Below are positions 5,896-59,963 of a stretch of 64,000 nt of DNA, in pieces. The translations under genes were made by a program, and so were the position numbers. Where the stretch lies: the NCBI GenBank assembly GCA_040752005.1, contig JBFMFX010000017.1, positions 10,871 to 74,870 of the forward strand, read 5' to 3'. Positions within the stretch are counted from its first letter, which is position 1; each line of letters starts with the position of its first letter. The notes under the pieces were generated by a model. The model saw only the letters and a list, made by a program, of their open reading frames with translations, did no database searches and had not been told where the DNA came from. This DNA comes from Pseudomonadota bacterium (GTDB lineage Bacteria; Pseudomonadota; Gammaproteobacteria; Burkholderiales; SG8-39).

Positions 5896-6449
5896 GCTCT
5901 TGCGCGAAGGCGCTCGAGATAGCGGGCGATCAGGTCAACTTCCAGATTCACCTTCGCGCCGGGCCGGAGCCGCTTGAGGGTGGTTACCCTCAGCGTGTGC
6001 GGGATGAGGAACACCTCGAAGTCCGCTCCGCGCACGCGGTTCACCGTCAGGCTGACGCCGTCCACCGCGATCGAGCCCTTGCGCGCGATGTAGCGCGCAA
6101 GCCGGCGCGGCGCGCGGATGCGAGTGACGCCGTCCTCGACCGAAACGACCCGCCCGACACCGTCCACATGGCCGGTGACGAAGTGCCCGCCGAGACGCTC
6201 GCCGATCGCGAGCGACTTTTCCAGGTTCACCTCGCCGGGTGCATCGAGCCCCGCGGTGACCGAAAGCGTCTCGCGCGAGACGTCGAACGCGAGCCGCCGC
6301 CCGCGCTTGGCGGTAACGGTCAGGCAGACGCCCTGCACGCACACCGAGTCGCCGACCCGCACGTCGCGAAGCGCAAGTCCGTCCGCGTCCACCACGAACG
6401 GCCGGGTGGAGACGATGCGGCCGACGGCCTGGACGATGCCGGTGAACAT
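5892..6449 (-). CDS. ribE: Riboflavin synthase (alpha chain, RibE/RibC)
   Basis: [12 protein letters not shown]...GDSVCVQGVCLTV...GHVDGVG...SIAVDGVSLTV shows the two lumazine-binding repeats. The start is trimmed inside ORF 5892..7283. The stop overlaps the hrpA ATG (ATGA). Confidence 0.92.
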   Translation of the reverse strand: MFTGIVQAVGRIVSTRPFVVDADGLALRDVRVGDSVCVQGVCLTVTAKRGRRLAFDVSRETLSVTAGLDAPGEVNLEKSLAIGERLGGHFVTGHVDGVGRVVSVEDGVTRIRAPRRLARYIARKGSIAVDGVSLTVNRVRGADFEVFLIPHTLRVTTLKRLRPGAKVNLEVDLIARYLERLRARA

Positions 6450-7519
6450 CAGCGTAACCGGGCGATGAGGCGCAGATCCCCGCCCACGCGCTCGACCGAG
6501 TGGATGCGCAGCCGAATCCGTTCGTCGAGCAAGGCAACCGCCGGCAGTTCCACCATGCCCTGCGCGGCATCGCCGAGCAGGCTCGGATTGAGGTAGATCA
6601 GGAACTCGTCCACGCAGCCTTCGCGCACGAGCGAGCCGTTGAGGCGAAACCCCGCCTCGACGTGCAGCTCGTTGACCCCGCGGCGCGCAAGCTCCTCCAG
6701 CATCGCCGGCAGCTCGACCTTGCCGCGTGCGTTCGGCAGCACCACCACGTCCGCGTTCGGCGGTGTCCTCCCTCCCTGGGCTGCGAAGATCAGCACGCGC
6801 TCGCCGGCGAGGATGCGCGCCGAATCGGGAATCTCCAGCCGGCTGTCCACCACCACGCGCAGCGGCTGGCGCGGCGTGTCCACCGCGCGCACCGTAAGCT
6901 GGGGATCGTCGGCCTTGACCGTGCCGATGCCGGTGAGCAGCGCGCAGGCGCGCGCGCGCCAGCGGTGGCCGTCGGCGCGCGCCTCCGGCCCGGTGATCCA
7001 GCGGCTGCGGCCGTCGGCGAGCGCGGTGCGGCCGTCCAGCGTCGCGGCGATCTTCATGCGCACCCACGGGCGGCCGCGCGTCATGCGCGAAAAAAAACCG
7101 ATGTTCAGCTCGCGCGCCGCCTCCTCGAGCAGGCCGAACTCGACGCGCACGCCGGCCGCGGCGAGCGCCTCGCCGCCGCGGCGCGCCAGCGGATTCGGGT
7201 CGCGCACCGCCGCCACCACGCGCGCGATGCCGGCGCGCGCGAGCGCCTCGGCGCAGGGGGGTGTCCTGCCGTAATGGTTGCACGGCTCCAGCGTCACGTA
7301 CGCCGTCGCGCCCCTCGCCGCGCCTCCGGCCGCGGCAAGCGCGTTCGCCTCGGCATGCGGCGCGCCGGCCTGCTCGTGCCAGCCTTCGCCGACGATGCGG
7401 TTGCCTTGCGCGATCACGCAGCCAACGCGCGGGTTGGGCGTCGCGGTGTACAAGCCCCGCTCGGCGAGCGCGAGCGCGCGCGCCATCATCGCCCGGTCGA
7501 GGCCGGAGAAGCCGCTCAC
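6449..7519 (-). CDS. ribD: Bifunctional diaminohydroxyphosphoribosylaminopyrimidine deaminase / 5-amino-6-(5-phosphoribosylamino)uracil reductase RibD
   Basis: [25 protein letters not shown]...HAE...[14 protein letters not shown] is the CDA zinc motif, followed by a reductase domain. The start is either GTG 7519 (GTGA overlap with the nrdR stop) or ATG 7489. Confidence 0.9.
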
Positions 7520-7983
7520 CGCCTGCGGCGGCGCGAAGCCTTCACTTCCTGCACCGCCTCGCGGAAGTCGTCCGGCGTCTCGAAGCTGCGGTACACCGAG
7601 GCGAACCGGATGTAGGCGATCTTGTCGAGCTTCGCCAGCTCGCGCATGACCAGGTCGCCGACGCGGCTGGTGGGAATTTCGCGCTCGCCGAGCGAGCGCA
7701 GCTTTTCCTCGATCCGGTCCACCGCCGCATCCACCGCCTCGGTCGCGACCGGCCGTTTCCTGAGCGCGAGCATCATGCTGCCCACCAGCTTTTCGCGGTC
7801 GTAGTCGGCGCGCGTGCCGTCCTTCTTGACCAGCCGCGGCATGCGCAGCTCGACCCGCTCGTAGGTGGTGAAGCGCTTGTCGCACTTCGGGCAGCGCCGG
7901 CGCCGGCGTACCACGTTCGCGCCGGGGTTGGAGCGCGTGTCCACTACGCTGGTGTCCTCGTGCGAGCAGAACGGGCAGCGCAT
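7516..7983 (-). CDS. nrdR: Transcriptional repressor NrdR
   Basis: [17 protein letters not shown]...[12 protein letters not shown] is the zinc ribbon, followed by an ATP-cone. Confidence 0.95.
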
Positions 7984-7992
7984 CGGCGCGCC

Positions 7993-9231
7993 TCAGCCGT
8001 AGACCGGGAATCGCGCGCACAGCGCGGCGACCTCGCGCCGCACGCGCTCGACGCGCAGCGTGTCCGATGGAGCCTCGATCACGTCGGCGATCAGCTCGGC
8101 GAGCCGCTCGGCCTCCTCCTCGCGCATGCCGCGCGTGGTCATCGCCGGCGTGCCGATGCGGATCCCGGAAGTCACCGTGGGCTTTTCCGGATCGTGCGGC
8201 ACGGCGTTCTTGTTCACCGTGATGTGCGCGCGCCCGAGCGCCTCCTCCGCCGCCTGGCCGGTGATGCCCTTCGTGCGCAGGTCCACCAGGAACATGTGGC
8301 ACTCGGTGCGCCCGGAGACGATCCGCAGGCCGCGGCGCGCGAGCGTCTCGGCCATGACGCGCGCGTTCTTCATCACCTGAACCTGATAGTCACGGAACTC
8401 GGGCCGCGCCGCCTCGGCGAGCGCCACCGCTTTCGCCGCGATCGCGTGCATCAGCGGGCCGCCCTGGATGCCGGGAAACACCGCCGAATCGAGCGCGCGC
8501 GCGTGCTCGGCGTTGGCGAGGATCATGCCGCCGCGCGGCCCGCGCAGCGTCTTGTGCGTGGTGGTGGTGACGACGTCGGCGATCCCGACCGGGCTCGGGT
8601 AGAGCCCGGCCGCGACCAGCCCGGCGTAGTGCGCGATGTCGGCCACCAGCACCGCGTCCACCTCGTCGGCGATGTGGCGCAGCCGCTGCCAGTCAATGCG
8701 CAGCGAATAGGCGGAGGCGCCGGCGACGATGACGCGCGGGTTGTGCTCGAGCGCCAGCTTCTCCGCCTCCGCGTAGTCGAGCACCTCGTCGGCGTCGAGG
8801 CCGTAGGAGATCGCGCGGTAGAGCTTGCCGCTCGAATTCACCGCCGCGCCGTGCGTGAGGTGCCCACCGTGCGCGAGGGACATGCCGAGAATCGTATCGC
8901 CGGGCCTGAGAAACGCGAGATATACGGCCTGGTTCGCCTGCGAACCCGAATGCGGCTGCACGTTGGCGTACTCGGCGCCGAACAGGCGCTTGGCACGCTC
9001 GATCGCCAGGTGCTCGGCGATATCCACGAAGGCGCAGCCGCCGTAATAGCGCCGTCCGGGGTAGCCCTCGGCATACTTGTTGGTGAGGAGCGACCCCTGC
9101 GCCGCGAGCACCGCGGGGCTGGCGTAATTCTCCGAGGCAATCAGCTCGACGTGCTCTTCCTGGCGCCGCGTTTCCTGGCGGATCGCCTGGAAAACCTCCG
9201 GATCGGTCTGCTCCAGGGTGGCGGCAAGCAT
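7993..9231 (-). CDS. glyA: Serine hydroxymethyltransferase
   Basis: 412 aa. Contains [30 protein letters not shown] and [14 protein letters not shown] (the PLP lysine). Confidence 0.97.
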
Positions 9232-9294
9232 GGTGCGGGGTGGCGCGAGGCGGCGAAGGGGCGAATTCTACTCGACCCCCGGCGCGCGCCCGGT

Positions 9295-9873
9295 CTATAC
9301 CGTCGCCGGCGGCGCGAGGTCGGAGGGGCGGTCTATGTCGCGCAGGACCCCGGGATCGCCCACCGGCACCTTGACGATTCTGTCCTCGTGCGCGGCGAGG
9401 ATCGCTCGCGCGCCCTCGTCGCCGGCGCAGCGCTCCAGCAGGGCACGAAAGCGCGCCGAAAAGCCCACCGGATGGCCGCGGCGGGCCCGGTAGTACGGCG
9501 CCGCGATCGGGGCGCCGGCGGCGAGCGCGTCGCGCACCGCGGCGATCGTGCTCGGGCGCACGAACGGCATGTCGGCGAGCGCGACGAGCCACCCGTCGGC
9601 GTCGGCCGCAGCGCGCACGCCGCAGGCAAGGCTCGCGCCCATGCCCTCGGCGGCGCCCGCGCAGAACACCGTCTCGCAGCCCTCCTCGGCGAGCAGCCGC
9701 CCGATTTCCTCGGCGCCCGGCCGCAGCACCGCGAGCACGCGCGCCAGCTCCGCACGGAGGTTTCTCGCCGCCTGCGCCGCCATCAGGACGCCGTGCGGCA
9801 GGGGGTGCAGCAGCTTGTCCGAGCCGAAGCGGCTGGCCGATCCCGCCGCGAGCAGCAGGCCGACGAGCTTCAA
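9295..9873 (-). CDS. MobA/MocA-like nucleotidyltransferase (probable molybdenum cofactor cytidylyltransferase)
   Basis: LLLAAGSASRFGSDKLL is the NTP-transferase motif. The start is set at TTG 9873 (TTGA overlap with the xdhC stop) rather than at the longer ORF start 9945. Confidence 0.75.
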   Translation of the reverse strand: MKLVGLLLAAGSASRFGSDKLLHPLPHGVLMAAQAARNLRAELARVLAVLRPGAEEIGRLLAEEGCETVFCAGAAEGMGASLACGVRAAADADGWLVALADMPFVRPSTIAAVRDALAAGAPIAAPYYRARRGHPVGFSARFRALLERCAGDEGARAILAAHEDRIVKVPVGDPGVLRDIDRPSDLAPPATV

Positions 9874-10895
9874 GCCCGGGCGGGGGTGTCCGGCGCCACC
9901 TCGCAGGCCGAGGGATCGAAGCGGCGCTGTTCCTTGGCCGCCCATGACGGCTCCACGACGCCGTGGCGCACGGCGGTCATCTCGGCGAGGATCGCCACCG
10001 CGATCTCCGGCGGGGTCTTCGAACCGATGTACAGCCCCACCGGGCCCCGCAGCCGGGCGATCTCCTCTTGCGACAGGTCGAACTCCGCCAGGCGCCTGCG
10101 GCGCGCGTCGTTATTCTTCTTCGAGCCGATCGCGCCGACGTAGAACGCGGGCGACTTCAGCGCTTCCAGGAGCGCGAGGTCATCGAGCTTCGGATCATGC
10201 GTGAGCGCCACCACCGCGCTGTGGGCGTCGAGGTTCATCTCGCGGATGACGTCGTCGGGCATGCCGCGCTCCAGCGCCACGCCCTCGACCCGCCATCCGG
10301 CGGCGTACTCCTCGCGCGGATCGATGACCGTCACGTGGTAGTCGAGCATGCGCGCCATCGTCGCGAGGTAATGCGTGAGCTGGCCGGCGCCGATCAGCAC
10401 CAGGCGCCAGCGCGGGCCGTGCACCGTGACGAGCACGCGGCCGTCGAATTCCAGCGTGTCGCTCCAGCGCCCGGGCTCGAGCGAAACCGCGCCGCTCGCC
10501 ATGTCCAGCCGCCGGCGCACGAGCTGCTGGCGCGAAATGGTGTCGAGCAGCTCCCCAATGCCGCTCCTTTCGGTCACCGGTTCGAGCACGATCTGCAGCG
10601 TCCCGCCGCAGGGCAGCCCCCAGCGGGTCGCCTCCTCGTTGGTGACCCCGTACTTGACGAGCTGCGGCAGATCCTTCGCCACCGCCCGCGCGCGCACCTT
10701 CTCGACCAGATCGTCCTCGACGCAACCGCCGGAAACCGATCCCACGACCTGCCCATCGTCGCGGATCGCGACCAGCGCGCCGACCGGACGAGGCGCCGAG
10801 CCCCAGGTCTTGACGATGGTGCCGAGCGTAACGCGATGCCCGGCCGCTCGCCAGGCCTCGGCGGTGCGCAGAACCTCGATGTCCACGCTGTCCAT
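9870..10895 (-). CDS. XdhC/CoxI-family molybdoenzyme maturation factor
   Basis: 341 aa. WGSAPRPVGALVAIRDDGQVVGSVSGGCVE is the XdhC N-domain. LIGAGQLTHYLATMA is the Rossmann-like C-domain. Confidence 0.85.
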   Translation of the reverse strand: MDSVDIEVLRTAEAWRAAGHRVTLGTIVKTWGSAPRPVGALVAIRDDGQVVGSVSGGCVEDDLVEKVRARAVAKDLPQLVKYGVTNEEATRWGLPCGGTLQIVLEPVTERSGIGELLDTISRQQLVRRRLDMASGAVSLEPGRWSDTLEFDGRVLVTVHGPRWRLVLIGAGQLTHYLATMARMLDYHVTVIDPREEYAAGWRVEGVALERGMPDDVIREMNLDAHSAVVALTHDPKLDDLALLEALKSPAFYVGAIGSKKNNDARRRRLAEFDLSQEEIARLRGPVGLYIGSKTPPEIAVAILAEMTAVRHGVVEPSWAAKEQRRFDPSACEVAPDTPARA

Positions 10896-10901
10896 GGCGC
10901 G

Positions 10902-10907
10902 ATTCTA
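10902..10907 (-). promoter_or_regulatory. -10-like TAGAAT 6 nt upstream of the xdhC ATG; the hexamer includes the kinase TAG stop
   Basis: Minus strand reads TAGAAT-cgcgcc-ATG, read directly. Confidence 0.3.
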
Positions 10908-12269
10908 CGCCCGCGCAAAGCGCAGGGCCACGCGGCACCCCTGGCCTGCGGCGCCCGCCCCGACCTCCAGAGCCGCCCCGTGCGCCAGCGCGATCTCGCG
11001 CACGATCGCCAGCCCCAGGCCGCTGCCCTCGCCCGGTGTGCCTGGCACCCGGTAGAAGCGCTCCAGCACCCGTTCGCGCTCGGCGGGCGCGATGCCCGGG
11101 CCGTCGTCCTCGACTTCCAGGAAGCTCGCGCCCTGGCGCACGCCGCTGCGCACCGTCACCCGGGCTCCGGACCCGGCGTACTCGATCGCGTTGTGGACCA
11201 GGTTGGCGAGCGCCTCGCGCAGCAAGAGCGCGTCGCCGCGCACCGGCGCCGGCGCCAGCTCGAACCCGAGGTCGATGCCGCGCGCCAGCGCGCGGTGCAC
11301 CCATTCGTCGGCCGCTTCCTCGACGACCGCGCGCAGATCGAGCGGCGCGAACCGTTCCGCGCTCCAGCCCCCGGGCTCGGCGCGCGCGAGCGCCAGCAGC
11401 TGGTTGGCCAGACGCGCGGTGCGGATGGTCGCGCGGTGAACCTGCTCCAGCTCTGCCCGGCAGGCCGCCGGCAGCTCGTGCGCGAGCGCAAGCTCCGTAT
11501 GCGCCTGCAGCCCGGCAAGCGGCGTGCGCAACTGATGGGCCGCGTTGGCGATGAAGCGGCGCTGGTTCTCGGCCGCTTCGGCGACCCGGCCGAGCAGATG
11601 GTTGAGGGCATTGGCGAGCGGTTGGACCTCCAGCGGCGCGTCCGCGGCATCCAGCGGGCGCAGGTCGCGCGCCGAGCGTGCCTTGATCTCGGCCGAAAGA
11701 GCCTCCAGCGGCGCAAGGCCCCGCTTGACGCCGAACCACACCGCGGCGAGCGCCGCGGCCGCCACCAGCAGCTCCGGCACCAGGCCGGTGAACAGGATGG
11801 CGCGCGCCAGGCTGCGCCTCTTGTTGCCGGTTTCGGCGACCTGCACCGTGCACACGCGGCCGGCGCAGGGCACGAGCATCGCGACCACGTGCACTGCGCT
11901 GCCGCGGTAGCGCGCGTCGTAGCGGATCACGCCGTCCTGCGCCCGCGCCCCCGGCGGCGGATCGGGCAGGCCGGCGTCGCCCGCGATCGCGGTGCCGTCC
12001 GGGGCGCGCACCTGGTAGTAGATGGTGTCGTAGCGGTCGGTGCGCAGGGCGCGGTCGGCCGCCCCCGGGAGATCGAAGGCGTAGCGGTCGCCGGAGGCGC
12101 GGATGCGCTCGGCGAGCGCGAGCGCGATGTCGGCGAGCGCCTGATCGTAAGCCTCGCTCGCCGGCTCGAGCGACACGAAGTATACGGCGACCGCGCCCAG
12201 CGCGAGCAGCGCCGCCACCGGCGCGAGCAGCAGCCGCAGCAGCTGGCCGCGCAGGCTGCGTGCGGCCAT
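10905..12269 (-). CDS. Two-component sensor histidine kinase, TctE/QseC-like
   Basis: Two TM segments flank a periplasmic domain. The H-box is FIANAAHQLRTPLAGL. The HATPase part contains EVEDDGPGIAP and GSGLGLAIV. Confidence 0.88.
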   Translation of the reverse strand: MAARSLRGQLLRLLLAPVAALLALGAVAVYFVSLEPASEAYDQALADIALALAERIRASGDRYAFDLPGAADRALRTDRYDTIYYQVRAPDGTAIAGDAGLPDPPPGARAQDGVIRYDARYRGSAVHVVAMLVPCAGRVCTVQVAETGNKRRSLARAILFTGLVPELLVAAAALAAVWFGVKRGLAPLEALSAEIKARSARDLRPLDAADAPLEVQPLANALNHLLGRVAEAAENQRRFIANAAHQLRTPLAGLQAHTELALAHELPAACRAELEQVHRATIRTARLANQLLALARAEPGGWSAERFAPLDLRAVVEEAADEWVHRALARGIDLGFELAPAPVRGDALLLREALANLVHNAIEYAGSGARVTVRSGVRQGASFLEVEDDGPGIAPAERERVLERFYRVPGTPGEGSGLGLAIVREIALAHGAALEVGAGAAGQGCRVALRFARA

Positions 12270-30830: not shown

Positions 30831-31316
30831 ATGCAGCCCGAATTCCCCAGCAAGACGCAGCGCAAGCGCGCGATGACGGAGCTGCAGGCGCTCGGTGCGG
30901 CGCTGCTCGAGCTGCCTCCTGCGCGCGTGCAGGCGCTCGCGCTGCCCGAGCCGCTCGCCGAGGCGCTCGCCGAGGCGCGCCGCATCGCCAGCCGCGAGGC
31001 GCGCCGCAGACAGATCCAGTTCATCGGCCGGCTGATGCGCGCGGTGGACCCGGAGCCGATCCGCGCGGCGCTCGCCGAGGCCGAAGGCCGCTCGGCGGCG
31101 GCGCGGGCGCGCCAGCGCCAGCTCGAGCGCTGGCGCGAACGCCTGATCGCCGATGACGCCGCGCTCACCGAATTCGCTCGCGCCCACCCGGCGGCCGAGC
31201 TTCAGGCGCTGCGCGCGGCGATCCGCAACGCGCGCAAGGAGATCGCCGGCGGTCATCCGCCGCGCGCACAGCGCGCGCTTTATCGCCTCATCCGGGAAGC
31301 GGTCGGCGAGTCGTGA
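30831..31316 (+). CDS. darP: Ribosome-associated protein DarP/YjgA (DUF615)
   Basis: SKTQRKRAMTELQALGAALLELP...RRRQIQFIGRLMR is present. The gene is divergent from pmbA, as in E. coli. Confidence 0.88.
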   Translation: MQPEFPSKTQRKRAMTELQALGAALLELPPARVQALALPEPLAEALAEARRIASREARRRQIQFIGRLMRAVDPEPIRAALAEAEGRSAAARARQRQLERWRERLIADDAALTEFARAHPAAELQALRAAIRNARKEIAGGHPPRAQRALYRLIREAVGES

Positions 31317-31546
31317 TCGAGACCGAGTTCCTCCGCCGGATCCGCATCACGCTCGAGCCGGCGCGCGAGCTGGGGCACGGGCCGCTCGGCCGGCGCCGCG
31401 TCATCGGCATCACCGGCGGCGAATTCGAGGGCCCGCGCTTCTCGGGCCGGGTGCTCGCGGGCGGAGCCGACTGGCAGCTTGTGCGCACCGACGGCGTGGC
31501 GTACCTGAATGCGCGCGACATCCAGGATTTCTGCCTCGTGCGATGA
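31313..31546 (+). pseudogene. Truncated DUF3237-family ORF (N-terminal half only)
   Basis: GRRRVIGITGGEFEGPRFSGRVLAGGADWQLVRTDGVAYLNAR matches the first half of the roughly 150-aa DUF3237 proteins. The ORF then ends after 77 aa, exactly where mog starts. Confidence 0.5.
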
Positions 31547-32133
31547 GCGGGGAGCTTCGCGTCGGACTGGTATCGGTGAGCGACCGCGCCTCGCGCGGCG
31601 TGTATCGCGACGAGGGGCTGCCGGCGCTGAAGGACTGGCTCGGCCGGGCGATCCGCTCGCCGGCGGTGCGTTATGAGGAACGGCTGATTCCGGACGAGCA
31701 GTCGCTCATCGAGGCCGCGCTGGTCGAGCTGGTGGATGCGAGAGGCTGCCACCTCGTGCTCACCACCGGCGGCACCGGACCCGCGCCGCGCGACGTCACG
31801 CCCGAGGCGACCCTCGCGGTCGCCGACAAGGTGATGCCGGGATTCGGCGAGCAGATGCGCCGCATCAGCCTGGAGTTCGTGCCGACCGCGATCCTGTCGC
31901 GCCAGGTCGCCGTGATCCGCAAGGGCTGCCTGATCGTCAACCTGCCGGGTCAGCCCAAGTCCATCCGTGAGACGCTTGAAGGTCTCAAGGACGCGAGCGG
32001 CAAGCCGATCGTTCCGGGCATCTTCGCCGCCATCCCCTACTGCATCGACCTGATCGGCGGCCCCTACGTCGAAACCGACGAAGCGGTGATCAAGGCATTT
32101 CGCCCGAAGTCGGCCGTGCGGCCGAAGGCATAG
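31543..32133 (+). CDS. mog: Molybdopterin adenylyltransferase MogA
   Basis: LRVGLVSVSDRASRGVYRDEG...LVLTTGGTGPAPRDVTPEAT is present. The start is trimmed from ORF 31153..32133, with an ATGA overlap to the upstream ORF. Confidence 0.9.
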   Translation: MSGELRVGLVSVSDRASRGVYRDEGLPALKDWLGRAIRSPAVRYEERLIPDEQSLIEAALVELVDARGCHLVLTTGGTGPAPRDVTPEATLAVADKVMPGFGEQMRRISLEFVPTAILSRQVAVIRKGCLIVNLPGQPKSIRETLEGLKDASGKPIVPGIFAAIPYCIDLIGGPYVETDEAVIKAFRPKSAVRPKA

Positions 32134-32138
32134 CGGGC

Positions 32139-32792
32139 GTGCTGGCGACGATCGAGGTCGAAACCGGCGCGCGCCCCGACGCCGCCGTCATCTGGATGCA
32201 TGGCCTGGGCGCCGACGGTCATGACTTCGAGCCGGTCGTGCCCGAGCTGCGCCTGCCGCAGGGGCTGCGCGTGCGCTTCGTGTTTCCCCACGCGCCCATC
32301 CGCCCGGTGACGATCAACGCCGGCATGCGCATGCGGGCGTGGTACGACGTCTTCCAGCTTGGCGGCGGTGCCGAAGACGAAGCCGGCATCCGCGCCTCGC
32401 AGGCCGAGGTGGAGAAACTGATCGAGCGCGAGACGCAACGCGGCGTCCGGCCCGGCCGGATCGTGCTCGCCGGCTTCTCTCAGGGCGGGGCGATGGCGCT
32501 GCATACCGGCCTGCGCCATCCGGAACCGCTCGCCGGAATCGTTGCGCTTTCGACCTGGCTGCCGCTCGCGGCGAGGCTGCCGGCCGAGCGCCACGCGGCG
32601 AACGCCGCCGCGCCGATCTTCATGGCGCACGGCACGGAAGATCCCATGGTGCCGCTCGCGCTCGCGCAGGCCTCGCGCGCGGCGCTGGAGCGTCTGGGGT
32701 ACGCCGTCGAGTGGCATCAGTACCCGATGCCCCATTCGGTCTGCGGCGAGGAAATCGCCGATATCGCCGCGTTCCTCGTCAGGATTCTCTGA
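32139..32792 (+). CDS. Phospholipase/carboxylesterase-family alpha/beta hydrolase
   Basis: VIWMHGLGADGHDF, GFSQGGAM (nucleophile elbow) and HGTEDPMVP...MPHS are present. Confidence 0.85.
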   Translation: MLATIEVETGARPDAAVIWMHGLGADGHDFEPVVPELRLPQGLRVRFVFPHAPIRPVTINAGMRMRAWYDVFQLGGGAEDEAGIRASQAEVEKLIERETQRGVRPGRIVLAGFSQGGAMALHTGLRHPEPLAGIVALSTWLPLAARLPAERHAANAAAPIFMAHGTEDPMVPLALAQASRAALERLGYAVEWHQYPMPHSVCGEEIADIAAFLVRIL

Positions 32793-34281
32793 CCATTTCC
32801 CGATAGCGGCCGATGTCGTAGTCCTCGCCGCGCTCGGCGAGGCCCTGCGGGATGTACACGCGCGTGCGCTCGCCTTCCCGCACCTCCAGGTTCTGCAGCG
32901 GCGCGTAGATCCCGGGCTTGAGCAGGATGCGCACCTCTGCCGCGCCGGCGTCGCGCATCAGCACACCCTCCTCGAGCGCGCCGCTCACCTCGAAGCGCCG
33001 CACCTCGGCCGAGCGCGCCAGCGTCTGGATTCCGACGCGCGCCTCGCGCGGGGTGGTCTTGTTCACCCGGCGCACGATCCCGAGCACCCAGTTCGTGCCA
33101 CCTTCTCCCTGAAGCGCGACGAGCGTTCCGACGCGCAGCCAGTCGCCCTTCAACTGCGGCACCACCGCACCGAAGCCCCCGGCGCTCACGTTCTCCACCA
33201 CCCAGCTCTCGGTGCCTTCGGCGCTGGAGCCGAGGCCGCCGGCAGCGCCCATCGCACCGAGTGCGCCCTCGTAGCCGTGCGCGACGAACACGCGCGATTT
33301 GACCGCGTGGCGCTGCGACTTGCGCTCCGGCGGCTGCGGCGACCACGCCCGCACCAGATGACGCAGCACGCCGAGCACCGATTCCGGGTCCACGCCCGTG
33401 ACGGCGGCGAGTTCCGAGGGCACCTGCCCGCGGGTGTACACGCGCTCCACGAGGGCCTCGGCTTCGGCGAGCGCGGCGCCGGCGCCGAACCAGCGTGCGG
33501 CCGGCGCCGCCTGCGCGCCACGGGCGCTGCGCTGCGGAGCCATCGGCCGGGAGAGGTCAATCCACCAGCCGAGCTCCGGGGCGGGCGCGGGCGCGATCGC
33601 GAAGCTCGGAGCGAAGTGTGCGATGAGGCGCTCGGCGAGGTCGGCCTCGGCCGGCAGCAGGCAATCGGGGCTCGCCGCGCTGAACATCGCACCCTTGAGA
33701 AATTCAAGCTGCGGCGAGGATTCGCCCGGCACGCCCGGATAGGCCGGCACGCGCGCCTGCGCGAGCTGGCGCGCCTCTGCAAAGGCGTACACACCGTTGA
33801 ACACCGCCCAGACGGCCGGATCAATCGGGCCATAGCGCAGGTGCATCCACTTGATCTGCTGCGCAAGGCTCCTCAGGGTCCGCACGAGGAGCGCCGGAAG
33901 CGAGGCGCGCGCCTGCTCGGCGCCCTTGGCGCCCTGCACGAACAGATCCACGGCTTTCGCCAGCGACAGGCCCGCCTGCCGGTAATAGCCGTGCACCGCG
34001 CTCCAGAGCCGGTTCTCCTGAAAGCGGGACGGCCGCTCCGCGGCAAAGTAGTCTCGGGCGAGTCTGCGCAGGCGCGGCTGCGCCGCCTCGTCTACCGCGA
34101 AGAGCGCCTGAATGCGGGCTTCGGGACGGAACTGTCCGGCGGCCGTCACCGACTCCAGCCAGTGCGTCAGCTCCTCCAGCGCCTTGAATGGGTCCTGAGC
34201 CGGAAGCTCGCCGAGGATCCGGCGCGCCTCCTTCGGATCGGCGAGGGGATGGTCGGGCTTGCCGCCAAACAGACGAAGCAT
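32779..34281 (-). CDS. PilZ-domain protein with a large uncharacterised N-terminal region
   Basis: The C-terminus carries RKSQR ... ENVSAGGFG, which fits RxxxR / (D/N)xSxxG. The start is set at MLRLFGGKP with GGAGG 5 nt upstream. Confidence 0.7.
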   Translation of the reverse strand: MLRLFGGKPDHPLADPKEARRILGELPAQDPFKALEELTHWLESVTAAGQFRPEARIQALFAVDEAAQPRLRRLARDYFAAERPSRFQENRLWSAVHGYYRQAGLSLAKAVDLFVQGAKGAEQARASLPALLVRTLRSLAQQIKWMHLRYGPIDPAVWAVFNGVYAFAEARQLAQARVPAYPGVPGESSPQLEFLKGAMFSAASPDCLLPAEADLAERLIAHFAPSFAIAPAPAPELGWWIDLSRPMAPQRSARGAQAAPAARWFGAGAALAEAEALVERVYTRGQVPSELAAVTGVDPESVLGVLRHLVRAWSPQPPERKSQRHAVKSRVFVAHGYEGALGAMGAAGGLGSSAEGTESWVVENVSAGGFGAVVPQLKGDWLRVGTLVALQGEGGTNWVLGIVRRVNKTTPREARVGIQTLARSAEVRRFEVSGALEEGVLMRDAGAAEVRILLKPGIYAPLQNLEVREGERTRVYIPQGLAERGEDYDIGRYREMVRES

Positions 34282-34313
34282 TGCCTCCGCTCCTCGTGGA
34301 GCCGCATCATGCA

Positions 34314-35627
34314 ATGTCCGGCAGGCTTTATCAATCCGTCCGGCCCCGGCACAATTCGGCGAGCGTCGTGGAGCCCCTGCGCTTTCTGATCGTGAGCGAT
34401 TCGCGCGACGAATGCGCCGCGCTCGCGCGCATGCTCGCGGCGCGCTGGCCGCAGGCCGCGATCGAGCACTGGGCGCCGATCGAGCGCGGCGGGTTGCCGG
34501 GCGATCGGCTCGCAGGCTGGAGCGCCATCCTGCTCGACGCGGGTCCGGGGCGGGAGGCGCCGCTCGCGTGGCTTTCGCGCCTGCGCCAGACCGCCGATCC
34601 CCCGCCGGTGCTCTTGCTCACCGCGCCCGGCAGCGAGATCGGGGCCGAGCAGGCGAGCCGAGCTGGGGTGGCGGACCTCCTCCACTGGGCAGGGCTCGAA
34701 CCGCGGCAGCTCGCGCGCGCCGTCGGGGACGCGCTTGCCGAGCGCGAGGCGCGGCGCGCCGAGCAGACGGGCGCCGACCCGCCGTGGCTTCGCACGACGC
34801 GCTGGGAACCGGCACGCATCGGCGCGCCGCTCGACGACGCTGCGCGCGAAGTGCCCGGCTACCGCCTGTTGCGCAAGATCGGCGAGGGCGGAATGGGGCA
34901 GGTGTATCTTGCCGAGCGCGTGCACGACGGCCTGCAATTGGTGCTCAAGCTGCTCGGGCCCGCGCTGCGCGGCGATCCCGTCTTCCTGCAGAGGTTCGTG
35001 CGCGAGTACAAACTGATCGCGGCAATCGCCGACGAGCATGTGGCGCGCATCTACGACCAGGGCTTCGCCGGCGTGCAGCCCTACCTCGCCATGGAGTTTC
35101 TTGCCGGCGGCACGCTCGCGGCGCGCATCCATGAGGGCATGACTTCGCTCGCGGCGCTGCGGCTCGCCGGCGGAATCGCGCGCGCGCTGGACGCGATCCA
35201 CCGGCACGGCATCGTGCATCGCGACCTCAAGCCCCAGAACATCATGTTCCGGGCCGGCGGCGCGCGTCCGGTGATCGTGGATTTCGGGCTGGCGCGCGAG
35301 CTCCACGGCGACTCGACGCTCACGCGGCACGGGCCGCTGCTCGCCACGCCGCGCTACATGAGCCCGGAGCAGTGCCTCGGCGAGCCGGTGGACGCGCGCT
35401 CCGACCTCTACAGCCTCGGCGTCATCTTCTACGAAATGCTGACCGGCCAGAAGCTGTTCGGGGACGCCTCCCCGGCCGACCTGATGCTCGCGCACGTGCG
35501 CGGCGAGGTGCCGCGGCTGCCGCCGCGCCTTGCCGGCTACCAGCCGGTGCTCGATCGCCTGCTCGCCAGGGATCCCGAGCGGCGGTTCCAGAGCGCACGC
35601 GAGCTTTTCGCTACCATCGCGATATGA
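34314..35627 (+). CDS. Hanks-type Ser/Thr protein kinase with N-terminal receiver-like domain
   Basis: [28 protein letters not shown] and SPE motifs are present. The N-terminus (LRFLIVSD...AILLDAG...VLLLTAPG) is REC-like. The start is uncertain: ATG 34314 or GTG at about 34369. Confidence 0.85.
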
Positions 35628-36436
35628 GCGCCAACCGCGAAGAGCAGCAGTACCTGGACCTGCTCGCCGAGGTGATGGCGAGCGGCGCGCGCAAGCCCGA
35701 CCGCACCGGCACCGGCACGCTGTCGGTGTTCGGCCGGCAGATGCGCTTCGGCCTCGACGGGCGCTTTCCGCTGCTCACCACGAAGAAGCTGCATTTCAAG
35801 TCCATCGCGTACGAGCTGCTGTGGTTCCTGCGCGGCGACACCAACGTGCGCTGGCTGCAGGAGCGCGGGGTCACGATCTGGGACGAATGGGCGGACGCGA
35901 ACGGCGAGCTGGGGCCGGTCTACGGCTACCAGTGGCGCCACTGGCGCACCCCCGACGGGCGCGAGATTGACCAGATCCGCGACGTCGTCGAGGCGATCCG
36001 GCGCGACCCGCATTCGCGTCGCCACGTCGTCTCGGCCTGGAACCCGGCCGACATCGGCCGCATGGCGCTGCCGCCGTGCCATGCGCTGTTCCAGTTCTAC
36101 GCCGCCGAGGGGCGACTGTCCTGCCAGATGTACCAGAGGAGCGCAGACCTGTTTCTCGGCGTGCCGTTCAACATCGCCTCCTATGCCTTGCTCACCCTGA
36201 TGGTCGCGCAGGTCACCAGCCTTGCTGCGGGCGAGTTCATTCTGACGCTGGGCGACGCGCACCTGTACCTCAACCACCTCGAGCAGGCGCGCGAGCAGCT
36301 CACGCGCGCGCCGCGCCCGTTTCCGCGCATGCGGCTGAACCCGGAGGTGCGCGACCTGTTCGCCTTCCGCTACGAGGACTTCACGCTCGAAGGCTACGAC
36401 CCGCACCCGGCGATCCGGGCGCCGATCGCGGTCTGA
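35624..36436 (+). CDS. thyA: Thymidylate synthase
   Basis: [23 protein letters not shown] (catalytic Cys) and DAHLYLNH are present. The ATG overlaps the kinase stop (ATGA). Confidence 0.97.
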
Positions 36437-36439
36437 GCG

Positions 36440-37450
36440 CTATGGGCGGCGGGGCTCCGCGGACGCCGTCCTCCCCGCCGGGCGCGGCTTGAACGTCGCC
36501 GGCGCGAGCGCGTGGCGCGCGAGCAGCCGATAGAACTCGGTGCGGTTGCGCCCGGCCAGGCGCGCGGCGCGAGTGACGTTGCCGGAGGTGATCCTCAGCA
36601 CACGCTCGAGGTAGTCGCGCTCGAAGGCGCGGCGCGCCTCGTCGAGCGGGACGAACCGGGGCGCCGCGCCGAGCGCCTCCTCCACCATCGCGCGCGTGAT
36701 CGGACCGGCGGCGGCCATCGCCACGAGCTGCTCGACGAACGCGAACAGCTGGCGCACGTTGCCCGGCCAAGACGCGGCGATCAGCGGCTCGAGCGCATCG
36801 TCGCCGATCTCCGGTCGCGCACCCCGGTACCGTGCGCCGAGCCGCGCAAGCGCGTGCGCGACGAGCAGCGGGATGTCTTCGCGCCGCTCGTCAAGCGGCG
36901 GAACGACGAGCCGGATCACTCCGAGGCGGAAGAAAAGATCCTCGCGAAAGGCGCCGGCGGCGACCCGCTCCTCGAGCGGCTCGCGCGTGCCGGCGATGAG
37001 ACGCGCGCCGCCGGGCCCCGGCGCGCGCTCTTCGAGCGCCTCCAGCAGGCCTGCCTGCAGTGGCGGCGAAAGCTCGCTCACGCCATCGAGATAGAGCGTG
37101 CCCCCGGTCGCGGCCGGCGCCGACGCGGGCCGCGCCTCGCCCTCGCCCGGCGATCCGAGCATCGCCCGCCGGATCTCCGCCTCCACGGCCTGCGAGCAGC
37201 GCGTGACGACGAAGGGGCCCGCCGCGCGAGGGCTCGCGCGATGGATCGCGCGCGCCACGGTCTTCTTGCCGGCGCCGGCCGGGCCGACGATGCACACCGC
37301 GGTATCCGAGGCGGCGGCGCGCCGCGCCTGCGCCAGCACCGTCTCCATCGCTTGCGAGCGCGCCACGATGTGCGCGCGCCACGAGGCCGCTTCGCTCTGC
37401 GGCTCGTCTGCGACGCGCGCCGCTTCGGTCAGGTTGGAGATCGAGACCAT
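36440..37450 (-). CDS. Sigma-54-activator-like AAA+ transcriptional regulator, degenerate (no GAFTGA, Walker B Glu replaced)
   Basis: GPAGAGKK, GGTLYLDGVSEL, FREDLFFRL, WPGNVRQL and a Fis-type HTH (NVTRAARLAGRNRTEFYRLL) are present. There is no receiver or sensor domain. The start is trimmed to MVSISNL. Confidence 0.8.
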   Translation of the reverse strand: MVSISNLTEAARVADEPQSEAASWRAHIVARSQAMETVLAQARRAAASDTAVCIVGPAGAGKKTVARAIHRASPRAAGPFVVTRCSQAVEAEIRRAMLGSPGEGEARPASAPAATGGTLYLDGVSELSPPLQAGLLEALEERAPGPGGARLIAGTREPLEERVAAGAFREDLFFRLGVIRLVVPPLDERREDIPLLVAHALARLGARYRGARPEIGDDALEPLIAASWPGNVRQLFAFVEQLVAMAAAGPITRAMVEEALGAAPRFVPLDEARRAFERDYLERVLRITSGNVTRAARLAGRNRTEFYRLLARHALAPATFKPRPAGRTASAEPRRP

Positions 37451-37461
37451 CTTCGCCCCTC

Positions 37462-37467
37462 TATAAT
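37462..37467 (+). promoter_or_regulatory. Consensus -10 TATAAT 30 nt upstream of folA
   Basis: The context cTATAATcggcgca is read directly. No convincing -35 was found. Confidence 0.4.
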
Positions 37468-37497
37468 CGGCGCAAAGATCCGTCAGGACCAGGACGT

Positions 37498-38025
37498 ATG
37501 TCACAGAATGCTCGCACCCCGGCGCCGTCGGTCGCCCCGAACGAGCCGCGCATCTACCTGGTCGCCGCGGTGGCGGCGAACGGTGTGATCGGCGCCGGTG
37601 GGCGGATTCCCTGGCATCTGCCGGAGGATCTGAAGCACTTTCGCACGCTCACGCTCGGGCATCCGGTGATCATGGGCCGCCGGACCTGGGAGTCACTCGG
37701 CAAGCCGCTGCCCGGACGCGAAAACATCGTGGTCACGCGCCGGCGCGGCTACGAGGCACCCGGTGCGTGCGTCGCCGCCTCGCTGGAGGCGGCGCTCGCG
37801 CTGTGTCGCGGCGAGCCGGTGGTGTTCGTGATCGGGGGAGCGGAACTCTACGCAGCGGCGTTGCCGCTCGCGCACGGAATGGTGATGACCGAGATCCACC
37901 GCGACTACGAGGGCGACGTCCGGTTCCCGGAGTGGGACCGCACCCGTTGGCGCGAGACTCAGCGAAAGCCGCAGACCAGCGCCGACGGCCTGCGGTTCGA
38001 TTTCGTGCTCTACGAGCGGGTCTAG
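37498..38025 (+). CDS. folA: Dihydrofolate reductase
   Basis: IYLVAAVAANGVIGAGGRIPWHLPEDLKHFRTLTLGHPVIMGRRTWESL is present. Confidence 0.95.
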   Translation: MSQNARTPAPSVAPNEPRIYLVAAVAANGVIGAGGRIPWHLPEDLKHFRTLTLGHPVIMGRRTWESLGKPLPGRENIVVTRRRGYEAPGACVAASLEAALALCRGEPVVFVIGGAELYAAALPLAHGMVMTEIHRDYEGDVRFPEWDRTRWRETQRKPQTSADGLRFDFVLYERV

Positions 38026-39236
38026 CGCGCCTCGCCCTTGGACTCGAAGACGCGGACCTCGGGCAGCGGAAAGCCGTTGAACTCGCTCGCGTACGCCGTC
38101 GTGTAGGCGCCCGCGTTGCGGATGTAGATGAAATCGCCCTCCTGCAGGTCCGAGGGCAGCGGTTCGTCGCGCAGGACCACGTCCACCGAGTCGCAGGTGG
38201 GGCCGGCCACGTTCCACGGCACGTCCGGCCCGGAGCGCTCGCTGCGGATCTTGTACTTGAGCCCCTCGGTGGTTTCGATGATGCCGCCAAAGAGGCCCGC
38301 GTCCCAGTGCATCCAGCGCTTGCCGCCGCGCACTGTGGTGCCAACGACCCGGCAGACGAAGTAGCCGGCGTCGGAGGTCATGTAACGTCCGGGCTCGGCG
38401 ACCACCTGAACGTCGTCGGCAAACGCCTTCAGCGCCTCGTTGACCACCGCCCCGATCACCTCGATCGAGGGAATCGGCTTGACGTGGCGTACCGGGAACC
38501 CTCCCCCGATGTCGAGCATCCGGGGCTTCAGGCCCGCCTTCAGCATGGCGTCGAACACCCCGCGCGCCTTTTCGATGCCGACGCGCCAGTTCTCCGGGTT
38601 GCGGCACTGCGAGCCGACGTGGAACGTCACCCCGGCCAGGTCGGCGCCGAGCTTGGCGGCCGTGGCGATGATTTCGCGGGTCTCGGTCGCCCCGGCGCCG
38701 AACTTGCCCGAAAGCGGCCAGTCGCTGCCGATGTTCGGCGTCGCGATGCGCACGTAGATTCGGGCGTCGGCGCGCGTCTCGTGCACGCGGCGCAGCTCGT
38801 CCACGCTGTCCACCGCGAACCACTGCACGCCCTTGCCGGCGGCGCAGGCGATCGCCGCACGCGATTTCATCGGGTTGGAAAACAGGATCTCCTCGGCCGG
38901 AACGCCCAGCGCGAGCAGCAGCTCCAGCTCCGCGGTCGAGGCGATTTCAAAGCCGCAGCCTTCCTGGGCGAGCACCTTGAGCACGCGCCGGTCGGGATTC
39001 GCTTTCACCGCATAGTGCGGCCGCACGCGCGGCATGGCGGCGCGGAACCGGCGCACCTTCTGGCGCACGATGGCGGTGTCGAGGATCAGAAACGGCCGCG
39101 TGTAGCGTTGCCGGGCGGCCTGGCGCACGATCTCGAAGTCGAGACTCGCTTCGGGATGCGTGTCGAAGAGCTGTTCTTGCGGTTGCGGGTTCTGTCTGCT
39201 GTTGCGCGCGATGCTACTCGGAGGGCGAGCGCCCAT
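38022..39236 (-). CDS. Fold-type-III PLP decarboxylase (ornithine/lysine/arginine decarboxylase family 2; eukaryotic-ODC-like)
   Basis: HYAVKANP (PLP lysine), DIGGGFP, EPGRY and GPTCDSVD motifs are present. SD AAGGAG lies 9 nt upstream of ATG 39236. Confidence 0.88.
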   Translation of the reverse strand: MGARPPSSIARNSRQNPQPQEQLFDTHPEASLDFEIVRQAARQRYTRPFLILDTAIVRQKVRRFRAAMPRVRPHYAVKANPDRRVLKVLAQEGCGFEIASTAELELLLALGVPAEEILFSNPMKSRAAIACAAGKGVQWFAVDSVDELRRVHETRADARIYVRIATPNIGSDWPLSGKFGAGATETREIIATAAKLGADLAGVTFHVGSQCRNPENWRVGIEKARGVFDAMLKAGLKPRMLDIGGGFPVRHVKPIPSIEVIGAVVNEALKAFADDVQVVAEPGRYMTSDAGYFVCRVVGTTVRGGKRWMHWDAGLFGGIIETTEGLKYKIRSERSGPDVPWNVAGPTCDSVDVVLRDEPLPSDLQEGDFIYIRNAGAYTTAYASEFNGFPLPEVRVFESKGEAR

Positions 39237-39256
39237 TCTGCCGATCTCCTTGCGAA

Positions 39257-39316
39257 CTAAGTTTCAGGAAGGTCGAGGATGCAGACGCAAGCGCCGGAGT
39301 TCCTTTTGCCTGTCAT
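39257..39316 (-). CDS. Candidate leader peptide uORF (MTGKRNSGACVCILDLPET) in the decarboxylase 5' leader
   Basis: The ATG is preceded by GAAGGAGGT with 5-nt spacing. The TAG stop lies 5 nt before the decarboxylase SD. No homologue was recognised. Confidence 0.3.
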   Translation of the reverse strand: MTGKRNSGACVCILDLPET

Positions 39317-39369
39317 GATGACCTCCTTCGTTCAGTTCGTCGAGCGCACGGTGAAAAAAGTCTGCGCCG

Positions 39370-39397
39370 ATTATAGGTACGACCCCCTCGCTGTCAA
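39370..39397 (-). promoter_or_regulatory. Near-consensus sigma-70 promoter TTGACA-16 nt-TATAAT driving the decarboxylase
   Basis: Minus strand reads TTGACAgcgagggggtcgtaccTATAAT. The -35 is at 39397-39392 and the -10 at 39375-39370. Confidence 0.6.
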
Positions 39398-39404
39398 GAG
39401 TTTC

Positions 39405-39431
39405 GGCGCCGCGCGCGGCGCGCGCGGCGCC
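39405..39431. repeat. 27-nt perfect GC palindrome (13-bp arms around one central base) just upstream of the -35
   Basis: ggcgccgcgcgcg-g-cgcgcgcggcgcc was verified base by base. It lies 78 nt downstream of the dcd stop, and no U-tract follows. Confidence 0.5.
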
Positions 39432-39508
39432 GCCGCCGGTCGCCCCGCGGCGCTTCCAATGCACTACATGTGGGGTGCCCTGCCGGCCGCCCCGCCCTAT
39501 CTAGTAGG

Positions 39509-59033: not shown

Positions 59034-59963
59034 ATGAGCAACTTGAACGACGTCGCGGGTCTGCGGCTGGCCTGCGGTACCTACCCCGAGGTGGAATACG
59101 AGTTTGAGCCGGCGATCGGCACCGTCTGGGGCTACATGCGGCAGCGAGGCACTCCCTGCTTCAATCTCGGGCTGCTGAAATCCATTCGGGAGTTCGGTAA
59201 CGCGCTCACGGCGAACGGCGGCACGGTCGAGTGCGGCGGGACCCGGTACAAGGTGAACTACTACGTCGCCGCCTCCCGGGTGCCGCGCGTGTTCAACCTG
59301 GGCGGGGATATCGCGCTGTTCCTGCTGCTGATCAAGTCGGGCGATCGCGACGCGCTGGCGCATTACGCGCACCTGTGCATAGATAACATCTACGCTCGGG
59401 TGCGGAACTATGGCTGCCCGGAGCTGACGACGATCTCTCTGGTGCAGGGCGAGGCGCTCGGCGGCGGGTTCGAAACCGCGCTCGCCTCCGACGTCATCGT
59501 CGCCGAGGAATCAGCGATGATGGGACTGCCGGAAATCCTGTTCAACCTGTTCCCCGGAATGGGAGCCTACAGCCTGCTCGCCCGCCGCGTCGGGCCGCGG
59601 GTCGCCGAGGAGCTGATCCTCTCGGGGCGCGTCCTGCCCGCTGCACGGCTTCACGAAATGGGCATCGTCGACGTGTTGGCGAAGGACGGCGAAGGCGAGG
59701 CCGCGGTCCGCAGCTGGATCGCGAAGAACGCGCGCCGGCGCATCGGCTTTCAGGCGGTGATGCAGGCGCGCAAACAGGTATTTCCGCTCACGCGCGCCGA
59801 ACTCGATGCCGTCGTCGAAACATGGCTCGACTGCGCCCTGCGCATCGAGGAGCGCGACCTGCGCATGATGGAGCGTCTCGTACGCGCGCAGCTGGAGCGC
59901 ATGGAGCGCGGCGCCTGGGGAGGTGTCGGCGGTGGAGCCGCGGCTGCTGCCGCCGCGGGCTAA
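59034..59963 (+). CDS. rpfF: DSF-family (cis-2-enoic acid) signal synthase, crotonase fold, RpfF homologue
   Basis: VFNLGGDIALF, LVQGEALGGGFETAL, MMGLPEILFNLFPGMGAYSLLARR and MERLVRAQ parallel RpfF. Both catalytic Glu positions are retained. SD GGAGGAG lies upstream. Confidence 0.88.
   Translation: MSNLNDVAGLRLACGTYPEVEYEFEPAIGTVWGYMRQRGTPCFNLGLLKSIREFGNALTANGGTVECGGTRYKVNYYVAASRVPRVFNLGGDIALFLLLIKSGDRDALAHYAHLCIDNIYARVRNYGCPELTTISLVQGEALGGGFETALASDVIVAEESAMMGLPEILFNLFPGMGAYSLLARRVGPRVAEELILSGRVLPAARLHEMGIVDVLAKDGEGEAAVRSWIAKNARRRIGFQAVMQARKQVFPLTRAELDAVVETWLDCALRIEERDLRMMERLVRAQLERMERGAWGGVGGGAAAAAAAG

Follow-up and report, generated by a model that had tools for sequence, protein, structure and literature searches.

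Contig JBFMFX010000017.1 of the Pseudomonadota assembly GCA_040752005.1 (Burkholderiales; SG8-39) carries, in the 64,000-nucleotide stretch analysed here (positions 10,871 to 74,870; hereafter the window, with its own numbering), a gene for a Hanks-type Ser/Thr kinase that directly precedes the thymidylate synthase gene thyA and diverges from a gene for a 500-aa uncharacterised protein of the PF27104 family, which we call PilZL for its PilZ-like C-terminal domain. We consider it likely that this is a clade-specific, vertically inherited locus of uncultured Burkholderiales, in which a cytoplasmic, PknB-like kinase with an N-terminal receiver (REC) domain lies between thyA and the thyA promoter and is bound to thyA by a cis expression dependency, with a facultative link to PilZL. 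In the mechanism we propose, the kinase and thyA would form a bicistronic operon whose sigma70-type promoter (TTATCA-16-CACAAT) would lie within the 86 bp between the kinase and PilZL genes, this promoter would stand back-to-back with that of PilZL and share its -35 region, and thyA would be translated by termination-reinitiation at an ATGA. The bond between kinase and thyA would then be a dependency of expression in cis like that of lgt-thyA in Escherichia coli, and not evidence of kinase signalling to the synthesis of deoxythymidine monophosphate (dTMP). A first-pass annotation, made from the letters of the window alone, had already proposed the kinase, its pseudo-receiver and the overlap with thyA, all of which stand, and the coupling, which is supported by comparison; its embedded promoters and its scenario of cyclic di-GMP (c-di-GMP) signalling find no such support.

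The letters ATGA (35624-35627, plus strand), read directly from the DNA, contain both the TGA that ends the kinase frame and the ATG that opens thyA, and are a predicted termination-reinitiation site. For comparison we assembled 160 related loci, 80 from genomes seeded on PilZL and 80 from metagenomes seeded on the kinase. They derive from uncultured Burkholderiales wherever a source is named, represent the best-scoring matches of a single clade, and are silent on more distant kinase homologues. A strict test, in which the kinase stop had to overlap an in-frame thyA start, was applied to 123 loci and found an [A/G]TGA overlap in 106 (88 ATGA and 18 GTGA). Loci without overlap mostly have gaps of 3-21 nt, the exceptions being L003, with 42 nt, and L087, with a premature stop. 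The last kinase codon ends in A, chiefly as ATA or GTA, in 88 of the 106 overlapping loci, despite a guanine-cytosine (GC) content of about 70%. No Shine-Dalgarno sequence was found upstream of thyA, the duplex energy being +1.9 kcal/mol in the window and on average about 0 kcal/mol across loci, and a scan of the kinase-thyA interval returned no promoter- or terminator-like site. L087 (Ga0194119_10023701) combines a TAA inside the catalytic domain with an intact thyA, and is either an incipient pseudogene or an assembly error.

A survey of the adjacency had been suggested at first pass, and the adjacency proves to be conserved: thyA directly follows the kinase in all 64 kinase-seeded metagenome loci with enough sequence to judge, and in 54 of the PilZL-seeded genome loci, where the upstream gene is a REC-kinase in 40, a kinase without receiver in 12 and a remnant in 2. 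This arrangement is preserved throughout the family as sampled here. Together with the overlap, the missing Shine-Dalgarno sequence and the uninterrupted interval, the kinase remnants described below fit the proposed co-transcription and translational coupling, and the predicted operon is well supported.

The most instructive feature of the locus is the evolutionary lock that coupling would place on removal of the kinase, and natural deletions are in keeping with it. Nine PilZL-seeded genomes have no kinase, and in these thyA is directly divergent from PilZL at a distance of 52-205 nt; two further loci hold remnants only. Two loci with 136 nt between PilZL and thyA (L042 and L043) carry a TAAAAT -10 box followed by the mini-frame ATG CGC TTT ATG ATA TGA, encoding MRFMI, whose stop forms an ATGA on thyA. 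Where the distance is 205 nt (L028), the first 28 kinase codons run on in frame into a tail of three codons (GTI) and a stop, and the resulting frame of 31 codons, MRFLIVDESGTFRAELALMLRERWPDAGTI, again ends in ATGA on thyA. Only the last kinase codons (…LLFATIAV and stop) persist in L020, and they too end in ATGA on thyA, while L015 and L035 keep larger remnants with the 3' end included. Remnants that end in ATGA are what one would predict if thyA relied for its expression on the kinase promoter and on translating ribosomes that arrive at the ATGA.

The other components of the locus come and go as well. PilZL is missing from at least 17 kinase-seeded loci that retain kinase-thyA, and in these the esterase gene abuts the kinase. 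The receiver domain is missing from an entire sub-clade, comprising 12 genome loci and 55 of the 80 kinase-seeded metagenome loci. By their distribution among the loci compared, related lineages have lost the kinase, its receiver and the PilZL gene independently of one another, and the link between PilZL and the kinase is facultative. Where the genes are present their identities co-vary (rho 0.70 for kinase-PilZL, 0.45 for kinase-esterase and 0.69 for the remaining PilZL-esterase pair), as expected of a single locus that is passed on vertically. Nearly all homologues of the kinase and PilZL belong to metagenome-assembled genomes of uncultured Burkholderiales or Betaproteobacteria; on this ground the host is no xanthomonad, despite the RpfG-like gene elsewhere in the window. 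The identity of thyA is 78-86% across nearly all related loci. Judged by flanking genes, the closest genome is L015 (JAOAFL010000138.1; odc 93% and a moaB-like gene 91% identical), in which the 404 nt between PilZL and thyA hold a decayed remnant of the kinase and PilZL has only 64% identity to that of the window. With flanks so close, this indicates that the kinase/PilZL pair evolves, or is turned over, far more quickly than the genes around it.

A precedent for such an arrangement is found in E. coli MG1655, where lgt lies 6 nt upstream of thyA. The title of Gan et al. (1995, J Bacteriol 177:1879), as listed among the references of PMC9487459, reports translational coupling of lgt(umpA) and thyA. 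As far as that title goes, the two cases share a thyA gene immediately downstream of a functionally unrelated, co-directional gene, a minimal gap, and a thyA level tied to translation of the gene in front. They differ in that the upstream gene of the window encodes a REC-Hanks kinase, that the junction is a 4-nt ATGA overlap instead of a 6-nt gap, and that the kinase is dispensable, having been deleted repeatedly with mini-frames left behind. The coupling described here is, unlike that of lgt-thyA, deduced from sequence.

On the other side of the intergenic region, PilZL (32779-34281, minus strand) starts at ATG 34281, preceded by the purine-rich GGAGCGGAGG, and this start is backed by an alignment with 33 homologues beginning M[LIK][KR]LFGG. 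PF27104, a family too recent for the local Pfam copy used, is assigned to every listed homologue, and NCBI names them 'hypothetical protein'. The full-length protein matched nothing in the local Pfam and NCBIfam collections, and a literature search for PF27104 found nothing. Its AlphaFold2 (AF2) model (m4587b1665127; predicted local distance difference test, pLDDT, 77.6) shows a confident helical domain at residues 1-230, a mixed linker and a beta-rich region at residues 329-498. The all-helical domain (33592-34281, minus strand) comprises nine helices, H16-H226, mostly at pLDDT 80-97, and Foldseek returned for it only weak helical-bundle matches and about 12 weak matches to 14-3-3 proteins. 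A 14-3-3 identity was rejected at the sequence level, where hhalign against human 14-3-3 zeta gave a probability of 0.09%.

The C-terminal beta-rich region (about residues 315-500; 32782-33339, minus strand) holds the two motifs RKSQR (R320 and R324, of the form RxxxR) and ENVSAGG (N364, S366 and G369, of the form NxSxxG), which together span 33175-33324. In 97 divergent relatives, with a mean identity of about 30% to the window protein, R320 and G369 never vary, and conservation of R324 and S366 is at least 90%. Of 104 full-length representatives at 50% identity, 93 match the two-motif pattern. Since the bare two-motif expression also matches nine other places in the six-frame translation of this GC-rich window, the case for PilZ rests on conservation across the family. 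PilZ is also the sole Pfam family matched by more than one member (7 of the 97 divergent relatives at E<=0.1, best 0.0019), and whole-model Foldseek placed MotI (probability 0.80), MrkH (0.66, found twice) and five BcsA chains among the top 18 PDB matches. A profile of the domain reached at least 862 clusters at 50% identity, and the full-length members of its top 150 matches are mostly about 500 aa long with the domain in the same place. By these comparisons we take the C-terminal domain to be a divergent PilZ-like domain with both c-di-GMP-binding motifs; binding of c-di-GMP is likely, and PilZL becomes a candidate receptor for this messenger. With the known PilZ receptors (YcgR, MotI/DgrA, MrkH and the BcsA C-terminus), PilZL shares a beta-rich domain that opens with RxxxR and [D/N]xSxxG in the canonical order. 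Unlike them, it has an unusually long and variable loop between the motifs, about six extra C-terminal strands after the putative barrel, and a 300-residue helical N-terminal region without known relative.

It is possible, if less probable than binding, that the domain is PilZ-like in fold and does not bind c-di-GMP, with a structural or protein-interaction role only. Several results weigh in that direction and against our assignment. The C-terminal 173 aa score only 15.8 bits against Pfam PilZ (PF07238; cut-off 22.5, E=0.018), a value that sets PilZL apart from the known receptors, and the individual Foldseek E-values are 0.14 or worse. PDB searches with sequence profiles of the PilZL family (A2, A4) returned no PilZ or other meaningful match, leaving PilZL without a profile link to any solved PilZ structure; Pfam scans of distant homologues gave a best PilZ E-value of 0.17, and the loop between the motifs (about 39 residues) is modelled with low confidence. 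Retention of both motifs in a family of about 30% identity is, however, hard to explain without ligand binding. The PilZ domain of the first-pass annotation hence holds in its motifs and their conservation, and falls short in its Pfam score.

Around PilZL, the most widely conserved neighbour is the convergent carboxylesterase gene (32139-32792, plus strand), whose 3' end overlaps that of PilZL by 14 bp (32779-32792); this adjacency is kept even in homologues of 35% identity (L073-L075). Distant homologues (33-48% identity) occur as tandem paralogues or among unrelated neighbours, with no kinase or thyA nearby. Distant relatives with two tandem paralogues are found in L060-L065 (about 8001-11450), and L076 has a second 500-aa open reading frame (ORF; 6440-7942, minus strand) that is divergent from PilZL and without Pfam match. 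No conserved partner emerged for these distant homologues, whose upstream genes differ (a GspH-like pseudopilin, LysR, BON, a CoA-transferase); a GspH/FimT-like pseudopilin gene lies upstream of the homologue in L060 and L067.

The proposal that the kinase separates thyA from its promoter depends on where the kinase begins. Our preferred model of 419 aa starts at GTG 34368 (34368-35627, plus strand), drawing on the starts of relatives, on pLDDT and on conservation of the upstream DNA. Most relatives' kinases start at a MRFLIV position, to which GTG 34368 (V-E-P-L-R-F) is equivalent in the window. The annotated alternative, ATG 34314, would give 437 aa and a gap of only 32 bp to PilZL, the spacing given at first pass. 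The sequence 34314-34367 is conserved in relatives that read it in different frames, some gene calls extending upstream in a frame other than that of SGRLYQSV, so its conservation is at the level of DNA. The longest ORF, from 34188, overlaps PilZL, and a start there is not credible. GTG 34368 is most likely the true start. With it the gap to PilZL widens to 86 bp, which leaves room for a back-to-back promoter pair and probably holds both promoters.

On the minus strand, a predicted sigma70-type promoter of PilZL (34306-34334) consists of a -35 TTGATA (34334-34329), a 17-nt spacer and a -10 CATGAT (34311-34306). It is the sole promoter site returned by a consensus scan of 34000-35800 (shuffles averaged 0.0), it is correctly placed for PilZL, and its element GGACGNATTGATAAAGCC...GATCAT is kept upstream of PilZL in many loci. 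On the plus strand, we propose as the kinase-thyA promoter (34328-34355) a -35 TTATCA (34328-34333) and a -10 CACAAT (34350-34355) separated by 16 nt. The pattern CTTTATCA-N16-CA[G/A/C]AAT recurs with this fixed spacing in 27 loci including the window, and the kinase start could be located 11-28 nt past the -10 box in 20 of the 27, the distance in the window being 12 nt. The two -35 hexamers overlap at 34328-34334, and TTTATCAA is the sequence that both promoters share within the 86-bp region. A kinase transcript made from this promoter would carry only a very short leader, without a Shine-Dalgarno sequence. At E<=1, Rfam gave no match to any RNA family within 31000-39500, which argues against a riboswitch or leader in the gap.

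Could the annotated model nonetheless be right, with the kinase starting at ATG 34314 or further upstream, a 32-bp gap, and both promoters embedded in the coding sequence of the partner, as the first-pass annotation required? The frame is indeed open from 34188, the 18-residue extension has similar amino acids in the four closest relatives (88-96% identical), and GTG is a poor start codon for leaderless initiation. We nevertheless regard this model as unlikely. The MRFLIV position is where most members of the aligned family begin, the ATG at 34314 is replaced by GTG in one close relative, and others read the same conserved DNA in another frame. Moreover, residues 1-18 of the 437-aa model have a pLDDT of 28-35, and ATG 34314 sits within the spacer of the conserved PilZL promoter. 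If the start at 34368 is accepted, a conserved back-to-back pair fits in the 86-bp gap and neither promoter has to lie within a gene.

A number of points weigh against an operon with a kinase start at 34368 and a purely cis-acting bond, and they should be stated together. The plus-strand promoter matches 8 of 12 consensus positions, which is below the cut-off of the scanner; the four closest relatives hold the frame open back to 34314; and as the start codon of a leaderless message, a GTG only some 5 nt from the predicted start of transcription would be weak. At the junction itself there is no added synonymous-site conservation, the third-position entropy of the last 10 kinase codons being not lower than elsewhere. 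A hidden cis-element at the kinase/thyA junction was rejected on the same measure. The constant adjacency may in part be synteny inertia, given that the 160 loci are the best matches of one clade. Finally, an adjacency that is never broken and a stoichiometric coupling are also to be expected of a true kinase-ThyA functional pair.

The kinase itself is, by homology, a PknB-like Hanks kinase with a complete catalytic apparatus and predicted activity. The ORF matches Pfam Pkinase (PF00069) at 137.5 bits (cut-off 31.7; E=7e-40), over residues 225-468 of the 479-aa longest ORF (from 34188), and the catalytic domain occupies 34860-35624 on the plus strand. When the window protein was aligned with 120 homologues, the VAIK Lys, the helix-C Glu, the HRD Asp, the catalytic-loop Asn, the DFG Asp and the APE Glu proved invariant in all 121 sequences. 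The AF2 model (pLDDT 75) has a bilobal kinase fold, which Foldseek matched to Mycobacterium tuberculosis PknB (1o6y) at E=3.6e-21 with a template-modelling (TM) score of 0.84 on the target, a root-mean-square deviation of 2.5 A and 35% identity. The identity of this ORF as a Ser/Thr kinase, read at first pass from its letters, is thereby secured. With PknB of M. tuberculosis and of Staphylococcus aureus it shares the catalytic fold (TM 0.84, 35-37% identity), all catalytic motifs and a conserved Thr in the activation loop (S-T-L-T). Unlike PknB, it has no transmembrane segment, no extracellular part and no PASTA repeats, the match to the NCBIfam model PknB_PASTA_kin being confined to the catalytic domain. 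Without a membrane segment it is expected to be wholly cytoplasmic, and its N-terminal receiver is joined to the kinase via a long helix.

This receiver (34380-34769, plus strand) is degenerate. Residues 23-152 (numbered, as are all receiver residues below, in the 437-aa model) adopt a (beta-alpha)5 receiver fold, b1-a5, in the AF2 model at a pLDDT of about 80-91, with strands at 23-27, 49-53, 71-75, 99-103 and 121-124 and helices at 31-44, 82-91, 109-117 and 130-152. The sequence reaches only 14 bits against Pfam Response_reg (PF00072; cut-off 30.2, E=0.059), and precomputed PF00072 matches are present in relatives at 60-69% identity and absent in the four closest relatives. Over the same 121 sequences, the first position of the acidic, Mg2+-binding pair that closes beta1 is Asp in 107 and Ser in the window (S28); the second is acidic in 111 (Glu in 84, Asp in 27) and Asp in the window (D29); the phospho-acceptor, with which beta3 ends, is Asp in 105, including D75 in AILLDAG of the window, and Glu in 14; the Thr/Ser position, T103 in the window, is Ala in 91 and Thr or Ser in 30. 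At the end of beta5 the conserved Lys is Lys in 94, Arg in 25 and Trp in 2, and W125 in the window. The four closest relatives all share the Ser at the first acidic position and have Trp, Arg, Lys and Lys at the Lys position, a variation that suggests relaxed constraint. Loss of both the first Mg-binding acidic residue and the conserved Lys in the lineage of the window makes the domain a pseudo-receiver, and fold and census bear out the earlier description of a retained Asp, SD in place of DD and no conserved Lys.

Pseudo-receivers are atypical receivers that lack the acidic pocket or the Lys, and response regulators with enzymatic output also exist. The domain has the same (beta-alpha)5 fold as either, and the consensus of the kinase family retains the D-D/E pair, the phospho-acceptor Asp and the Lys. 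As a response regulator, the family is set apart by its output, a Hanks kinase, which is a rare architecture; literature searches on REC-Ser/Thr-kinase architectures returned nothing specific. In addition, the sub-lineage of the window has Ser at the first acidic position and Trp for Lys, 14 of the 121 have a Glu acceptor, and one sub-clade has dropped the receiver altogether.

It is tempting to speculate that these genes form a functional signalling module, in which the kinase phosphorylates ThyA or another component of the dTMP/folate cycle (for example, the REC-less AAA+/HTH regulator encoded downstream), coupling fixes the ratio of kinase to ThyA, and PilZL feeds c-di-GMP status to the kinase. 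Consistent with such a module, the kinase is never found apart from thyA in the 64 evaluable kinase-seeded loci, the overlap holds in 106 of 123, and PilZL and the kinase share one compact promoter region. In Myxococcus xanthus, moreover, Pkn1 fuses a Ser/Thr kinase to a PilZ domain, which is predicted not to bind c-di-GMP (PMC8316039). Like the locus of the window, Pkn1 associates a Hanks kinase with a PilZ domain (PMC8316039); unlike that single polypeptide, the kinase and PilZL are separate divergent genes in facultative association. The regulator is present in 29 of 34 REC-kinase loci, 1 of 5 kinase-only loci and 3 of 7 loci without kinase. This co-occurrence with the REC-kinase is suggestive, but it is confounded by phylogeny, and there are independent losses in both directions.

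We judge the module improbable all the same. The kinase has been lost at least nine times, with two remnants besides, while thyA and PilZL stayed; PilZL is missing from the 17 or more loci that keep kinase-thyA; and the regulator and the kinase have also been lost independently of each other. PilZL has no invariant Thr in its disordered loops, its distant homologues have unrelated neighbours, and in E. coli, too, the partner to which thyA is coupled, lgt, has an unrelated function, if the title of Gan et al. is followed. Repeated loss of the kinase, the receiver and PilZL means that the evidence does not require a functional tie of the kinase to ThyA or PilZL, and a cis expression dependency alone can explain an adjacency that is never broken, which is then no proof of signalling. 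The input of c-di-GMP to the kinase through PilZL, raised at first pass, finds no comparative backing in these absences of one gene from loci that hold the other. We hold it to be quite unlikely that the kinase, made in fixed ratio with ThyA, controls the dTMP/folate cycle via ThyA or via the regulator, which is divergent from folA, with the PF27104 protein as a c-di-GMP receptor that shares the control region.

The reading of the kinase as a single-gene anti-phage defence kinase of the PD-T4-6 or Stk2-like kind, parked upstream of thyA and patchy through defence-gene turnover, draws on PADLOC matches (PD-T4-6 models at E=1.6e-75, mad6 at 1e-55), partial NCBIfam MADS6 and PglW matches, patchy presence and a variable N-terminal domain, but is extremely unlikely: the PADLOC matches span the generic kinase domain only, the PD-T4-6 models also pick up a kinase gene that every analysed S. 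thermophilus genome carries, the site is a constant chromosomal one among housekeeping genes with uniform GC and identities that track the neighbours, and no integrase, transposase or other defence gene was seen among the genes examined. The PD-T4-6 identity was accordingly rejected as non-specific.

The surrounding genes are of familiar kinds. The thyA product (270 aa; 35624-36436, plus strand) matches PF00303 at 407 bits (E=3.6e-122) over profile positions 1-266 of 266, and the GC content of the region is uniform throughout. Converging on the thyA stop with a 3-nt gap is the regulator gene considered above, which encodes a sigma54-activator-like AAA+ protein with a Fis-type helix-turn-helix (HTH; 36440-37504, minus strand); its longest ORF has a start that overlaps that of folA (37498-38025, plus strand), and an ornithine/lysine decarboxylase-like gene follows folA in the gene order. 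The regulator lacks a receiver domain and the GAFTGA loop (…AMLGSPGEGEARPASAPAATGG…), and its Walker B sequence is TLYLDGVSE, with Asp-Gly and no Glu. Far from the locus, a hybrid histidine kinase with the domains HisKA-HATPase-REC-Hpt (59960-62704, minus strand) and a REC-HD-GYP response regulator (62485-63579, minus strand) form an RpfC/RpfG-like pair (59960-63579, minus strand). The HD-GYP gene, which had been taken to hint at c-di-GMP input, is real, but it is paired with a hybrid histidine kinase of its own at a distance of about 28 kb, and with nothing to tie it to the kinase locus the link was rejected.

Taken together, all components of the locus are of known kinds, and current concepts stay unchanged unless the kinase acts on ThyA or on folate genes; if it did control the dTMP/folate cycle, second-messenger and Ser/Thr signalling would be linked to DNA-precursor supply. 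The REC-Hanks kinase family would bridge two-component and Ser/Thr signalling. If our assignment of the PilZL domain is right, a large unstudied family of about 500 aa, with at least 862 clusters at 50% identity and PilZ-type motifs, would join the candidate c-di-GMP receptors. If our reading of the intergenic region is right, it corrects a likely mis-called kinase start and shows a compact back-to-back promoter pair. Above all, an essential gene, thyA, would have no ribosome-binding site of its own, and the accessory gene upstream of it could be removed only via deletions that leave a translated mini-ORF, as in the MRFMI relics. The locus would then show cleanly, and in nature, how translational coupling can work as an evolutionary lock.

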